From contig CAYJUW010000001.1 in NCBI GenBank assembly GCA_964373495.1, positions 1-36,197 on the forward strand: 36,197 nucleotides of DNA, written 5' to 3'. Position 1 is the stretch's first letter, and every line of letters begins with the position of its first letter. The notes beneath the pieces were generated by a model. That model was not told the DNA's origin, did no database searches, and worked only from the letters and a program-made list of their open reading frames with translations. The position numbers were made by a program, and so were the translations under genes. Source of the stretch: an uncultured Candidatus Saccharibacteria bacterium. GTDB lineage: Bacteria; Patescibacteriota; Minisyncoccia; Sungbacterales; SURF-37. Shown here piece after piece: positions 1,691 through 25,461 of this stretch.

Positions 1691-3154
1691 TCAAGGTCTC
1701 AGGCTCTTTACTGCCCGTACGAACTTTTCCCCGCGGTCAAATTCGTGCCTGAACAGTCCAAAGCTCGCCGCGCCCGGCGAGAGCAGCACCGCGTCCCCCC
1801 GCTTGGCATTGCGGTAGGCCACCCGCACCGCCATCGCCATCGTCCGCGCATCCCGAATACTTAAATACTGTACAGTATTTAAGTATTCGCCATGTGCGCC
1901 GGGCTTTTGCCCCGTTTGCCCCTGGTGGAACATTTGCCGCCCCAAGGCCTTTTGCATTTTGTCGGTTGCTGTACCGGGCAGGAATGTTACGGAAGCTGCA
2001 TTCTCGCGGAGCGCCCGCATGAACTGACTAGCCGCTAGACCCTTGTCGTAACCGCCGGCGATGACGTGGAGACCGTGATGCCCGATGCCTCGCTTGGTGG
2101 CGATGATCGCTTGCTCCGCCGCCGTGGGATTCGTCGCCGTCGTGTCATTGATGAAGGAAACCCCGCGGACTTTCCGTACAAGCTCCATGCGGCCGGGCAT
2201 GCCGCGGAAGCGGGCGAGCGCGGTTCGGACGGCGCGCTCCCCTACTCCGGTATGCCGGGCGATGGCAACGGCCCCGGCGATGTTCGGGATATGGAACGCG
2301 GGAATGTTTTTTGCCAGCGCGTCACGGTAGCGACGCAAAATTTTCTGGGAATCGAAACGGATGACGCGCGATGGTGTATTACGGGCTATGCGCCGGAGCA
2401 GCGGATCACGGGCGTTGACGAACAGCATGTCACCGCGTTTCTGGAATTTGAAAATGTTCGCCTTGGATGCGATGTAGGCGGCCATCGAAGGGTAGCGGTT
2501 CAAGTGATCCGGAAAGATGTTGGTGATGAGGGCGATCGCCGGGCTCCGGCGGCTGTTCTTTAGCGAATCTAGTTGGAAACTCGATAGTTCCAGCACCACA
2601 AGGTCGTTTTTACGCACCCGTAACAGGAATTCAAGAACGGATTTCCTGATGTTGCCGCCGAGCCACACTCGGGATCCGCGTCTGATCCGCGTAGCCGATC
2701 CGCGTGGGATCCGCGGAGATTCCCCATGCCGCATCTCGGCACGGAGCATTGAGGCCAACAGGGTTGCGGTTGTTGACTTCCCTTTCGTACCGGTGATGCC
2801 GATGATCGGCGCCGGGCATCCGAGAAAAAAAATCTCAACATCGGAGAGGATGGAAACGCCGGCGCGCCTGGCGATTTTCAGAAACTTTGAGTTTTCGGGT
2901 ACGCCGGGGCCCTTGATGATGTAGTCAGCGATTTTGAAATCAGCCGGCCGGTGCCCGCCGAGGCGGTAGGTGATGTTTTTGAAGCGGCGGAGTTTGGCAA
3001 TGGTCGGCGCAAGTTGCCGTTTCGTTTTCAGATCAGTGACGATCACGTGGCTTCCCAAGCGGGAGAAGAAAGCAGCGGCGCCGGCGCCGCCTCCGTGCAA
3101 CCCCAATCCCATGATGAGGGCTTTTTTATTTTTGAAATCAGCGAGCTTCAGCAT
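1691..3154 (-). CDS. murD: UDP-N-acetylmuramoylalanine--D-glutamate ligase (MurD) with two unusual in-frame inserts
   Basis: N-terminal GLGLHGGG Rossmann motif, P-loop GITGTKGKSTT, and C-terminal LLSPGAASFGLFRHEFDRGEKF, which is typical of MurD. 487 aa. Confidence 0.9.
   Translation of the reverse strand: MLKLADFKNKKALIMGLGLHGGGAGAAAFFSRLGSHVIVTDLKTKRQLAPTIAKLRRFKNITYRLGGHRPADFKIADYIIKGPGVPENSKFLKIARRAGVSILSDVEIFFLGCPAPIIGITGTKGKSTTATLLASMLRAEMRHGESPRIPRGSATRIRRGSRVWLGGNIRKSVLEFLLRVRKNDLVVLELSSFQLDSLKNSRRSPAIALITNIFPDHLNRYPSMAAYIASKANIFKFQKRGDMLFVNARDPLLRRIARNTPSRVIRFDSQKILRRYRDALAKNIPAFHIPNIAGAVAIARHTGVGERAVRTALARFRGMPGRMELVRKVRGVSFINDTTATNPTAAEQAIIATKRGIGHHGLHVIAGGYDKGLAASQFMRALRENAASVTFLPGTATDKMQKALGRQMFHQGQTGQKPGAHGEYLNTVQYLSIRDARTMAMAVRVAYRNAKRGDAVLLSPGAASFGLFRHEFDRGEKFVRAVKSLRP
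1854..1889. repeat. 36-bp perfect palindrome CGAATACTTAAATACTGTACAGTATTTAAGTATTCG inside murD (GTAC-core AT-rich family)
   Basis: Arms checked base by base around the GTAC centre at 1870-1873. Encodes EYLNTVQYLSIR in the murD frame. Confidence 0.95.
2671..2715. repeat. Four closely spaced GATCCGCG copies (2673, 2684, 2697, 2708) inside murD
   Basis: Sequence is GGGATCCGCGTCTGATCCGCGTAGCCGATCCGCGTGGGATCCGCG. It encodes the Arg/Ser-rich stretch PRIPRGSATRIRRGSR between the P-loop and the GGNI motif. Confidence 0.85.
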
Positions 3155-10022: not shown

Positions 10023-10048
10023 GGAGCAGACAGCGTAACCGCCCGGCC

Positions 10049-10082
10049 TAATACTGTAATACTGTACAGTATTACAGTATTA
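10049..10082. repeat. 34-bp perfect palindrome TAATACTGTAATACTGTACAGTATTACAGTATTA (variant of the GTAC-core family)
   Basis: Checked base by base. Lies 14 nt downstream of the TrpR-like gene stop. Shares the core AATACTGTACAGTATT with 1854, 10652 and 24710. Confidence 0.95.
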
Positions 10083-10095
10083 CCTTGGGGTCTAT

Positions 10096-10617
10096 TTAGT
10101 AGCGCGCTTTAGCCAGGAGTAACTTAGCATCTTTGTAAATTTTTCTCTTATGATCGAGGTTGTCAATTACCTGATAAATTCGTTCACGCTCTTTTCGCGA
10201 CGCTGTTTCAAGCAGTTCCTGTATCAGCAACTGCGGCCAATAGTAGAGCGGATACTTTTTATGGATCGGCGGTCCATAGCTTCGGTTTGCACTTCGTTGT
10301 CGTTGCGAGCGCTGATACAGGAGGCGAAAGCCCGCACCCGAGTGCTGGAGCCAGGCACTTACCCGCGCAATGGTCGGTTCACTTACCTTCATTCGCTTTC
10401 TGATTTCTTCGTAGGTTTCGCCCTCAATGAGTAGAGTTGCAATTTTTAAGCGTTTGGCCAACATTTCCAGCTCTTGGCGCGAAACAAGATCCCCGAAGAC
10501 TTGGGCGGCCTCCTCCACGCCGCGTATGGTTCCCAGGCTGCGGAAAAATTCAAAAAGCAGTTCGTCTCTTTCTTTCCGGGACAGCTTGAGGCTGAATTTT
10601 TTCATCCGGCCGGTCAT
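10096..10617 (-). CDS. TrpR-related YerC/YecD-family DNA-binding protein with a C-terminal extension
   Basis: DELLFEFFRSL...QELEMLAKRLKIATLLIEGETYEEIRKRMKVSEPTIARVSAWLQ matches the YerC/YecD Trp-repressor-like fold pattern. Visibly lower GC than the neighbouring genes. Confidence 0.75.
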   Translation of the reverse strand: MTGRMKKFSLKLSRKERDELLFEFFRSLGTIRGVEEAAQVFGDLVSRQELEMLAKRLKIATLLIEGETYEEIRKRMKVSEPTIARVSAWLQHSGAGFRLLYQRSQRQRSANRSYGPPIHKKYPLYYWPQLLIQELLETASRKERERIYQVIDNLDHKRKIYKDAKLLLAKARY

Positions 10618-10651
10618 TGGTTCTCAGCTTCTTAACGCCACGTCATCGGAT

Positions 10652-10683
10652 AATACTTAAATACTGTACAGTATTTAAGTATT
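10652..10683. repeat. 32-bp perfect palindrome AATACTTAAATACTGTACAGTATTTAAGTATT
   Basis: Checked base by base. Lies 35 nt upstream of the TrpR-like gene start at 10617. Confidence 0.95.
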
Positions 10684-10766
10684 GGTATCGAGCTGGCTGG
10701 TCCAGAATGGCTTTTGATCCGTCAGCCATTTCTGGACAGCTTCTTCGTTCTATCGTCCTATCGTCT

Positions 10767-23599: not shown

Positions 23600-25444
23600 C
23601 TACTGCGGGAGCTCAAATTTAAATACCCGAAACGCGACTTCATTTCGCGGATTTCGGATTTCTTCCGGCACCACGCCCTTGGCGCGGAGTTCGGCTTCCA
23701 AGAGGTCACCGTCCGGCGCGGCTGGCCGGGGGCGATCCTGAAGGGCGTATGCCAAAGGGTTGAAGAAGTAGATTTTCTGAACGCCGGATTGCCGGAGGAA
23801 CTCGGCCGCTCCCCCGCGCCGGAAGTTTTCTGCGCTCACCACCGGCCAGCCCTGGTAGGTGATGCGCCGCAGGAAGACCCAGAGCTGGGCGGCGAGGTTG
23901 ATGTTGTCGTTGTAGACGATGCCGAGCGGTGTTGGCTTGAGTTTCTGGCGTCTGCCTTCGGCAGCCGCTTGATTCAAAAGTTCATGCGCGAACGGAAATT
24001 CAAAGGTGATGGCCGGATCCGGCATCTTGCCCGCCAGCTCCTGGCCGAGGTAGGCGTTCAGCTTGTTGAATCCCCAACTCCCGGTTTGGCGGTGGAGGTA
24101 GGAGTAGGCCCAGGGCTTCTCGCCAACCGGATCGAGGGCTATAACGCTGTTGTAAGCATAAAAGGCCTCAAAGGCGACAAAAGCCGCAAAGGCCGCAAAG
24201 ACAATGGCGGGCGATTTCATTCCTAAATTCCTAGGAATATTGGAATAGATTGTTGCGCTGATGGCGTAGCCGGCGGCAATGGCCAGCCACGGGGTGAGCA
24301 GGGCCAGGAAGCGGTGCGCCGGACCGATGAATACGAGGAACGGCAGGAGCCAGATAAAAACAATGGCTAATGGCGAATGGCTGGTGGCTAAGGTACGGCG
24401 GCGGATTAGCTCCCAGAAGATTGCGACGAGACCGGTAACAGAAAGAATGAGGAAGTAGGGCGAGTTGGCCTCGATGAGCCGCGGCACGTACATCCGTACG
24501 CGATCGGAGAGCGACCCGAGTACTTCCTGCCCCGGCCGCGCCTGCCATTCCGGCACATCCTGTCTAAAGAGGAGCGAAAATTGAAAATCAAAGTGGCCGA
24601 AATGGCGGTAGAGTTGAATATTGTAGATAATCACCGGACTTGCGATGACCAGAAAGGCCATGACCGAAAGTAAAACATGTTTGGCGGGGAAACGCCGCCC
24701 CCATCGTCCAATACTTAAATACTGTACAGTATTTAAGTATTTAATTTGGAGGAGGTAGAGGGTCAGTAATATCGGTGCGAGGATCGCGGCGAGGTACTTC
24801 GCGAGGAAGGCAAAGCCAAGGAGCGCGCCGGAAAGGGGCAGCCACCACGAGGAGTTTCGCTTCGTCGTTGCGAAGCTGGGCGTCGTGTCAAGACCGCGCA
24901 GAAACGCCCAGAACGACGCAAGCATGAAGGCGATGAGGACGGATTCCTGCAGGCCGATCCGGGAGATCCAGACGTGATTGGCGGTGACGGCAAAGAGCAA
25001 AGCGCTTATCGCCCCTACGGTTGGCGAATAACTATGGAAGCCCGACTTCAATAGTTTGCCGCCTATTGAAGTCGGACTTCCATAGATTCCAGAGAGTTGG
25101 GCGCCAATGAGGTAGACGAAAATGACCGCGGCGATGCCGGCAAGCGCCGAGGGCAGGCGCACGGCAAAGGGCGTCTCGCCGAAGAGTTTCATGGAATAGT
25201 GCTGCAGTAAAAACACCAGCGGCGGGTGGTCGTGGAAGGAAAGGCGCATCCACCACGGGGGCTGGGTGTCAATCCACTGCCACGGCGTGGGCTGTTCGAT
25301 CCCGAAATCAAAATCCACGAGGCCGATAGCCCGCGTGGCATAGGAGGACTCGTCGGTTACGATGTCCGGCCGGCCGAGATGCCAGAAATAAAAAACAGCC
25401 GTGAGGCAGAGAAGACCGCCTATCAGCCAATTCTGGGACTTCAT
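23600..25444 (-). CDS. ArnT/PMT-family (GT39/GT83-like) membrane glycosyltransferase with a C-terminal soluble extension
   Basis: N-terminal DESSYATRAIG loop motif, more than 10 TM segments, about 614 aa. The track start at 25447 is a GTG and ATG 25444 is adjacent. Confidence 0.75.
   Translation of the reverse strand: MKSQNWLIGGLLCLTAVFYFWHLGRPDIVTDESSYATRAIGLVDFDFGIEQPTPWQWIDTQPPWWMRLSFHDHPPLVFLLQHYSMKLFGETPFAVRLPSALAGIAAVIFVYLIGAQLSGIYGSPTSIGGKLLKSGFHSYSPTVGAISALLFAVTANHVWISRIGLQESVLIAFMLASFWAFLRGLDTTPSFATTKRNSSWWLPLSGALLGFAFLAKYLAAILAPILLTLYLLQIKYLNTVQYLSIGRWGRRFPAKHVLLSVMAFLVIASPVIIYNIQLYRHFGHFDFQFSLLFRQDVPEWQARPGQEVLGSLSDRVRMYVPRLIEANSPYFLILSVTGLVAIFWELIRRRTLATSHSPLAIVFIWLLPFLVFIGPAHRFLALLTPWLAIAAGYAISATIYSNIPRNLGMKSPAIVFAAFAAFVAFEAFYAYNSVIALDPVGEKPWAYSYLHRQTGSWGFNKLNAYLGQELAGKMPDPAITFEFPFAHELLNQAAAEGRRQKLKPTPLGIVYNDNINLAAQLWVFLRRITYQGWPVVSAENFRRGGAAEFLRQSGVQKIYFFNPLAYALQDRPRPAAPDGDLLEAELRAKGVVPEEIRNPRNEVAFRVFKFELPQ
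24710..24741. repeat. 32-bp perfect palindrome AATACTTAAATACTGTACAGTATTTAAGTATT inside the glycosyltransferase CDS
   Basis: Identical to 10652-10683. Encodes KYLNTVQYLSIG in frame. Confidence 0.95.
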
Positions 25445-25461
25445 CACGCTAGAGCTCGTCG

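Follow-up and report, generated by a model that had tools for sequence, protein, structure and literature searches.

A 32-nt palindrome in frame within a Patescibacteria glycosyltransferase gene: a probable copy of the site of a TrpR-fold protein

We analysed a 36,197-nt stretch of DNA, hereafter the window (assembly GCA_964373495.1, contig CAYJUW010000001.1, positions 1 to 36,197 of the forward strand), from an uncultured Candidatus Saccharibacteria bacterium placed by GTDB in the order Sungbacterales of the Patescibacteriota. The genome (G000) comprises 784 kb in 68 contigs, with 59% G+C and 99% completeness. A gene for a membrane glycosyltransferase in this window carries a perfect 32-nt palindrome in its reading frame, and identical copies lie in murD and beside a gene for a protein with the fold of the tryptophan repressor (TrpR); the glycosyltransferase copy is considered here as a probable secondary copy of the DNA site of that protein.

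The palindrome within the glycosyltransferase and murD genes

The gene under study and the palindrome inside it were located as follows.

23600..25447, minus strand: intact gene for a PMT_2/GT39 membrane glycosyltransferase (GT-C fold) of 615 aa; Pfam PMT_2 2.7e-15, PMT 1.8e-10
24710..24741, no strand (palindrome): the glycosyltransferase copy of the 32-nt palindrome, from sequence, exact-copy search and translation

The palindrome (AATACTTAAATACTGTACAGTATTTAAGTATT) has the layout ATACT-N3-ATACT-GTAC-AGTAT-N3-AGTAT. Three exact copies were found in the window (starts 1856, 10652 and 24710), and 100 dinucleotide-preserving shuffles gave none. Being self-complementary, the sequence can be read in three frames only. 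One of these, AAT ACT TAA ... ATT TAA, contains two TAA stops; the earlier sequence-only reading had noted a TAA in one frame. The other two are open: A ATA CTT AAA TAC TGT ACA GTA TTT AAG TAT, which gives ILKYCTVFKY, and AA TAC TTA AAT ACT GTA CAG TAT TTA AGT ATT, which gives YLNTVQYLSI. It is the latter that is used by both the glycosyltransferase and murD, exactly as that reading had placed it. The glycosyltransferase reads through the palindrome as K-YLNTVQYLSI-G (...LLQI-K-YLNTVQYLSI-G-RWG..., from K236-Y237 to I246-G247) within the translated stretch ...LLQIKYLNTVQYLSIGRWG..., and as RNA the palindrome would form a 14-bp hairpin (-26.1 kcal/mol, z -5.6).

Contigs from four metagenome runs (X1-X4) were also inspected at window 24703-24733, where their summed depth stood at ~16 times the depth of the flanks (460 vs 29 in X1). 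In these contigs the palindrome has many differing flanks, which indicates that several organisms of one community carry it in abundance.

Homologues of the glycosyltransferase numbered 200 at E<=1e-30, and 60 sequences, the query included, were aligned (alignment A1). The ORF (open reading frame) is full length and keeps 36 of the 36 invariant columns, so the host gene is not a pseudogene. At the loop that holds the palindrome (site B), the decapeptide was present only in the query and in its closest relative P0004 (L127), the other 58 of the 60 aligned sequences being without it; the family baseline at this site is a short basic linker, approximately RRDYFKS, which joins two transmembrane helices. 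P0004 is 76% identical to the query in the alignment and its gene 81% identical in nucleotides, and its palindrome matches at 31 of 32 positions, with ATAC at the centre. In P0004 an 18-nt duplicate of the left arm stands in front of the palindrome (KYFNTAQ-YLNTIQYLSI), which results in four direct ATACT blocks. Measured from FLAKY to SPVI, the loop has 56 aa in the query, compared with 50 aa for congeners and 42-44 aa for other genera; the excess of 6 aa over congeners, and of 14 aa over the family baseline, is not a clean gain of 10 codons because the loop itself is variable.

The AlphaFold model of the glycosyltransferase, built on alignment A1, was of high overall confidence (pLDDT, the predicted local distance difference test, 91; predicted TM-score 0.92), and only residues 121-140, 191-200 and 241-250 formed blocks of low confidence. 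The last of these is the palindrome peptide, with a pLDDT of 53 vs the model mean of 91. Residues Y237-I246 were modelled at the end of helix 218-242 and in the loop 243-254, ahead of helix 255-268, in agreement with the sequence-only reading, which had put the peptide between transmembrane segments. According to this model, the palindrome peptide sits in a structurally tolerant loop. All three low-confidence inter-helix loops are probably cytoplasmic, judging from the order of the helices, the basic linkers, the positive-inside rule and the topology of the GT-C fold.

The second coding copy in the window lies in the gene of another enzyme.

1691..3154, minus strand: murD; Pfam MurD-like_N, Mur_ligase_M, Mur_ligase_C
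1856..1887, no strand (palindrome): palindrome identical to the copy at 24710, in frame (YLNTVQYLSI), within a variable C-terminal-domain loop of MurD

MurD reads the palindrome as ...HGE-YLNTVQYLSI-RDAR... (HGEYLNTVQYLSIRDAR); its ORF is full length with three Pfam domains retained, and it is therefore not a pseudogene. The palindrome in murD is present in G000 and in its relative G002 and decayed in G001, and it is absent from the congener G003 and from seven aligned genomes of other genera. The loop measures 168 nt in G002 vs 138 nt in G003, a difference of exactly 30 nt. The palindromes of G000 and G002 are identical at 30 of 32 positions, in genes that are 70% identical and within a surrounding loop that cannot be aligned (p ~1e-3). 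MurD also contains a second patchy in-frame insert at window ~2640-2745 (residues ~140-160), made of four direct repeats of ACGCGGATC (...RIPRGSATRIRRGS...), which was present in G000, G006 and G008 and absent from G001-G003.

With the peptide restricted to the query and P0004, and located in a low-confidence loop of a confident model, the glycosyltransferase copy is, judged from the sequences, inserted DNA and not a product of protein homology. Insertion had already been proposed in the sequence-only reading, and it is now supported by the additional 30 nt in murD, by the 58 of 60 homologues without the peptide and by the identity of nucleotides, not only of peptide, between the copies. Decay of the hosts into pseudogenes, which had been named as a point that would speak against it, was seen in neither gene.

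The TrpR-like gene and its palindromes

The third exact copy lies 14 kb from the glycosyltransferase palindrome, at a TrpR-like gene that is bracketed by two copies.

10096..10617, minus strand: gene for a TrpR-fold helix-turn-helix protein of 173 aa, the presumed binder of the palindrome; Pfam Trp_repressor PF01371
10652..10683, no strand (palindrome): palindrome identical to the copy at 24710, a presumed auto-operator, 34 nt upstream of the TrpR-like ATG
10050..10081, no strand (palindrome): variant palindrome AATACTGTAATACTGTACAGTATTACAGTATT, both spacers changed symmetrically, just past the TrpR-like stop and before scpB

The protein matched Pfam PF01371 at 4.1e-13 (49.7 bits against a cut-off of 27), and a profile search of the PDB returned the YerC-type structures 3frw, 3kor and 3g1c at about 1e-16. 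When its AlphaFold model was searched with Foldseek, only TrpR/YerC structures were matched (3frw, 3kor, 3g1c and E. coli TrpR; TM 0.74-0.86). In addition to this fold, the protein has a conserved helical C-terminal extension, K-Y-P-x-Y-Y-W-P-Q-L-L, in which Y-P-x-Y-x-W-P is invariant (alignment A2); no PDB match to this motif was obtained in the profile search. A catalytic role for the protein was considered and rejected, since the model consists of helices only, matches TrpR/YerC structures only and has no catalytic fold.

In G000 the TrpR-like module lies between scpA and scpB, a position shared by G001 and G002 only, and the same three genomes carry the murD insert; in G001 the homologous upstream palindrome abuts the ATG of the TrpR-like gene. 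In G003, G005, G007 and G004 scpA and scpB are adjacent, with gaps of 8 to ~106 nt, and in G009, G006 and G010 they are kept apart by other genes. When the slot was compared among genomes (window 10023-10766 vs L086-L097), an unannotated ORF of ~130-140 aa was found in G009 and G006 and other unannotated sequence in G010 and G002. Altogether, eight relatives have scpA and scpB either side by side or with other genes in between, and the module of G013 stands in a different context. The TrpR module is thus optional, and the gap between scpA and scpB is a variable slot. A parS/ParB-like centromere or a loading site for SMC was rejected as an explanation of the palindrome because the position at scpA/scpB is held in G000, G001 and G002 only.

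The association of gene and palindrome was then followed across the order. The pattern ACT-N3-ATACT-N4-AGTAT-N3-AGT was present in 10 of 62 genomes, and genes of PF01371 occurred in all 10 of these palindrome-bearing genomes vs 10 of the 52 others. At eight loci, palindromes of the ATACT family form pairs 444-602 bp apart, with GTAC, TTAA, CTAG, GCGC or ATAT at the centre; the ATACT blocks are conserved, and it is the spacers and the centre that vary. Most of the loci examined that encode a TrpR-like paralogue of 140-190 aa were bracketed by a pair of their own palindrome of 26-46 nt, and genes of the YerC type (~100 aa) were not bracketed. Even in another family of the order, G013 has a 140-aa TrpR-like gene bracketed by palindromes of the GTCACTTTAATACTGTACAGTATTAAAGTGAG type. 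Furthermore, palindrome-positive loci with a TI[AGS] recognition helix had ATACT-type palindromes in 13 of 13 cases, and loci with a TTV[HNF] helix had CAAT...ATTG-type palindromes in four of six, so that, by sequence comparison, the class of recognition helix tracks the class of palindrome. The motif with the GTAC centre also occurred in 23 genome stretches, whose labels include Uhr-, Berkel-, Sungii-, Doudna- and Woesebacteria.

In G001, three of four copies share an asymmetric change of the centre from GTAC to TTAC, which points to homogenisation or recent copying. G003 lacks both the GTAC palindrome and the scpA/scpB module and has a different TrpR-like paralogue on its contig C31. Its own palindrome, ATATCAAT[GA]GTATATAC[CT]ATTGATAT, was found in 12 copies (C31:5518/6043, C1:33461, C6:11175, C5:4984 and 7 more), which stand on both sides of its TrpR-like gene, are read in frame as ISMVYTIDI within two PMT_2 genes and occur once in the spacer between def and fmt. 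One of these PMT_2 genes is the same GT39 gene that hosts the palindrome in G000, entered at a third loop (site C), and the def/fmt spacer is occupied in both genomes by different palindromes.

The half-site of TrpR is GNACT, spaced by 8 bp in a 20-bp operator (PMC9413887). Taken together, the bracketing, the co-occurrence across the order, the co-variation of helix and palindrome and the partial likeness of the half-sites make it most likely that the TrpR-like protein has its cognate site in this palindrome, which we infer that it binds.

Copies, reading frames and a second palindrome

A census of G000 gave six copies of the palindrome: those in murD and the glycosyltransferase, the two around the TrpR-like gene, one at the junction of def and fmt and one in a group I intron. 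The def/fmt copy (contig C31:1478-1509) exactly fills the gap that separates the stop codon of def from the start codon of fmt, and its outermost bases complete the TGA of def and the ATG of fmt. It is a hybrid palindrome, one spacer being TAA and the other TAC. With the 28-nt core excised, stop and start would overlap as TGATG, which is no more than suggestive. The intron copy (contig C50, L150, 2677-2708) lies beside a 16S rRNA gene in a group I intron (Rfam RF00028, 54.6 bits), where it takes the position of the P6 stem-loop of the Rfam model. The surrounding region, C50 2539-5028, contains a partial 16S rRNA gene (Rfam model positions 628-1533) with a 916-nt insertion, followed by the group I intron at 2539-2866 and a group II D1-D4 fragment at 3031-3106.

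According to the sequence-only reading, insertions would be tolerated only where they bring in no stop codon, and the use of one frame by both coding copies was offered in evidence. Among the six copies of G000, none was found in the stop-containing frame of an intact gene. We then counted independent in-gene events across relatives and obtained seven, from two palindrome families: murD (G000, G002 and G001); site A of the glycosyltransferase (G001 and G006, with a common left flank S-x-x-Q); site B (G000 and P0004); a PMT_2 protein of a Patescibacteria metagenome-assembled genome (L121, NLNTVQYLS); UvrB of G017 (HYDTLEYPS, from a CTAG-centred variant with a single open frame); and two copies of ATCTATATCAATGGTATATACCATTGATATAGAT in G003, both read as ISMVYTIDI in the single open frame. 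All seven occupy stop-free frames (product of the chance probabilities ~0.007). The frame argument was right in kind but weak for the YLNTVQYLSI palindrome taken by itself: two of its three frames are open, and agreement between two copies has a chance of 1 in 2. The wider count of events makes it convincing. In the four events with two open frames, YLNTVQYLS was used each time over ILKYCTVFKY (p = 0.06, not significant), a suggestive hint of a further filter on the peptide. PMT_2 glycosyltransferases host five of the seven in-gene copies, three of the five having come from unbiased pattern scans.

The same glycosyltransferase carries a palindrome of a second, unrelated kind. A 23-nt sequence, CTAT[TG]GAAGTC[CG]GACTTC[AC]ATAG, forms a tandem pair in frame at site A (window 25032-25054 and 25063-25085) and adds 21 aa (SGIYGSPTSIGGKLLKSGFHS); the 23-nt family has about 20 copies genome-wide. 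Occupants of site A differ between genomes, being palindromes of the TrpR type in G001 and G006 and of the 23-nt type in the homologue P0005. In this organism, at least two kinds of palindrome are thus written into the same loops.

G000 also has two Y1_Tnp (HUH) genes, in the intervals C33:549-1309 and C58:1037-1795, with an HYHLL motif. The first is bracketed by the 23-nt palindrome, which lies upstream at 549-571 and, in frame, at the 3' end at 1189-1211 and 1287-1309; the contig of the second also holds the 23-nt palindrome. The C33 gene and its 23-nt palindromes are a unit resembling repetitive extragenic palindromic (REP) sequences with their REP-associated tyrosine transposase (RAYT), the repeats of which also land inside genes. 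Mobilisation of the 32-nt palindrome by these HUH transposases was considered and rejected, as they are tied to the 23-nt one; cross-mobilisation by a RAYT-like enzyme could still occur. No empty allele was seen in the contigs of the four metagenome runs, which break at the palindrome, and this falls short of showing that such an allele is absent; the single joint in these contigs came from a relative with the palindrome at its site A.

Interpretation and comparison with known systems

In the reading that we favour, the TrpR-fold protein encoded at 10096-10617 would recognise a DNA site of which the palindrome at 24710-24741 is a secondary copy. Copies of this site of ~30 nt may have been written elsewhere in the genome by a copy-and-paste route and would persist only where they do no harm, that is, in a stop-free frame and in short, probably cytoplasmic loops between helices of the PMT_2 glycosyltransferase. 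Other harmless places would be the variable surface loop of MurD, the exact gap between def stop and fmt start and the P6 hairpin of the group I intron. As a whole, this account of a copied cognate site, kept only where frame and loop tolerate it, is the one we favour with reasonable, though not high, confidence. The 32-nt palindrome itself is not a classical transposon and belongs to the TrpR-like gene. Whether the copies inside genes have a use, such as that of a roadblock or landmark on genes of envelope glycosylation, or are merely tolerated appears to us an even question; use is suggested by their recurrence in the same genes and by their conservation, and the shared centre change in G001 is a further hint. 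A more far-reaching version, which we regard as rather doubtful, would see in TrpR-fold proteins and long palindromes a self-perpetuating protein-plus-site system of Patescibacteria, laid out like REPIN-RAYT and lacking a transposase, in which sites would be actively copied, homogenised and entered in frame into coding sequence, by preference into cytoplasmic PMT_2 loops, where the protein once bound would serve as a switch or roadblock within the gene.

Several observations weigh against the copied-site account. The TrpR-like protein has no catalytic domain. No direct repeat indicative of a target-site duplication was present in the flanks of 11 copies, filled and empty loops being too diverged for the boundaries to be placed. 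A sigma-70 scan found nothing over the palindrome, including no promoter over the presumed auto-operator, and none of the six copies of G000 stands at an obvious promoter, with the exception of the copy ahead of the TrpR-like ATG and perhaps of the def/fmt copy; such scarcity of promoters would be odd for a classical regulon. In the trp operator the inverted half-sites are 8 bp apart, and here they are 4, 12 or 20 bp apart. Retention is not universal either, as 4 of 32 positions have changed in the decaying murD copy of G001. As regards use of the copies, the enrichment in PMT_2 genes is partly ascertained, site A having been found by aligning the host gene, and it could reflect many tolerant loops instead of regulation; the intron-hairpin copy gives the impression of mere tolerance.

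The palindrome might instead be a selfish miniature mobile element, similar to a miniature inverted-repeat transposable element (MITE), a REP sequence or a Rickettsia palindromic element (RPE), moved by an enzyme acting in trans and tolerated at neutral positions, with the TrpR-like protein irrelevant to the intragenic copies or at most a passenger or partner. Presence and absence do vary among congeners, identical copies do occur at unrelated loci, and all of them lie in tolerant places, an RNA hairpin position included; two HUH genes are at hand, and the RAYT-bracketed 23-nt palindrome in another loop of the same gene means that palindromes are mobilised into coding loops here. We nevertheless consider this unlikely. 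Copies number just 6-12 per genome, the HUH genes are bracketed by the 23-nt and not by the 32-nt palindrome, and neither a target-site duplication nor a terminal-repeat structure nor a parent insertion sequence was seen for the 32-nt palindrome. Bracketing of the TrpR-like genes and co-variation of helix and site classes would be unexpected for a free element, and the arrival of two unrelated families at the same def/fmt junction of ~30-175 nt and in the same gene would be rare under random insertion.

A function in RNA, where the hairpin of the transcript would signal processing, stability or a translational pause and the DNA palindrome would be its by-product, has in its favour the strong 14-bp hairpin described above and the copy at the P6 position; it is nevertheless very improbable. 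Hybrid copies with unequal arms (TAA vs TAC, in G000 C31 and in G006) break pairs of the stem, the retention of ATACT blocks beside varying spacers and centre is the pattern of a protein-binding site, and the link to the gene of a DNA-binding protein would be left unexplained. That the decapeptide is a selected protein motif, through homology or convergence, or that the copies are artefacts of assembly, is scarcely credible: nothing specific speaks for either, although in the model the peptide, which is amphipathic, prolongs a helix. All 32 nucleotides are identical, synonymous positions included, copies occur also in non-coding DNA and inside an intron, and orthologues lack the peptide; the same insertions were recovered in independent assemblies and in contigs of the four sequencing runs.

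Regulation in the candidate phyla radiation (CPR), or Patescibacteria, is almost unstudied, and the present finding supplies a concrete regulator-site pair that can be tested. In the literature library consulted, no published description was found of TrpR-like genes with palindromes in Patescibacteria, or of in-frame palindromic insertions in CPR. Long binding-site palindromes can, on the copied-site account, enter the reading frames of essential and envelope genes and add a fixed decapeptide, an entry known for the RPEs of Rickettsia and not for sites of transcription factors. The presence of different palindrome families in the loops of the same glycosyltransferase and at the def/fmt junction suggests either an undescribed intragenic control of envelope glycosylation or targeted insertion, and either would be new. 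If the protein-plus-site system is real, very compact genomes would have in it a way to regulate genes singly inside their long operons. Inserts of this kind account for loop insertions that conserved proteins show in particular lineages, which is of use in annotation.

Among known systems, RPEs resemble the present case in that palindromic repeats lie in frame in unrelated genes which still function, with the peptide at tolerant surface positions (PMC10969869). They differ in being about 100-150 bp long (PMC10969869), in occurring in dozens of copies and in having no associated gene for a DNA-binding protein, whereas here an insert of ~30 nt is found in 6-12 copies in Patescibacteria. In REP/REPIN-RAYT systems (REPtrons), a gene is likewise bracketed by a short palindrome dispersed over the genome, and several protein-palindrome families, each with its own sequence, may share a genome. 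RAYT, however, is an HUH Y1 transposase (PF01797), while the protein bracketed here is a non-catalytic TrpR-fold helix-turn-helix protein; copy numbers are far lower, and the genuine RAYT-like genes of this genome go with the 23-nt palindrome.

The nearest relatives are the TrpR/HisR (YerC) regulators, which have the same fold over the N-terminal 100 residues (PF01371; PDB 3kor, 3frw, 3g1c, 1tro). Their differences from the present case are considerable: the proteins described here have 140-190 aa with a conserved C-terminal domain (KYPxYYWPQLL), compared with a single domain of <110 aa dependent on an amino-acid co-repressor; their site has 26-34 bp instead of 20 bp (32 bp in G000) and stands on both sides of the gene; several paralogues occur per genome (up to 5); and the extra copies are found in coding frames, at def/fmt and in an intron, not in promoters of amino-acid genes. 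Nevertheless, TrpR/HisR regulators likewise have a palindromic site ahead of their own gene, as was seen here at eight ATACT-family loci and at most of the paralogue loci examined. As for the half-sites, the palindrome described here consists of ATACT blocks (of the ANACT type), two of them direct at a period of 8 bp, as in tandem TrpR binding, and two inverted, but the inverted pairs are 4, 12 or 20 bp apart; finally, in both cases lineage-specific motifs co-vary with the protein.

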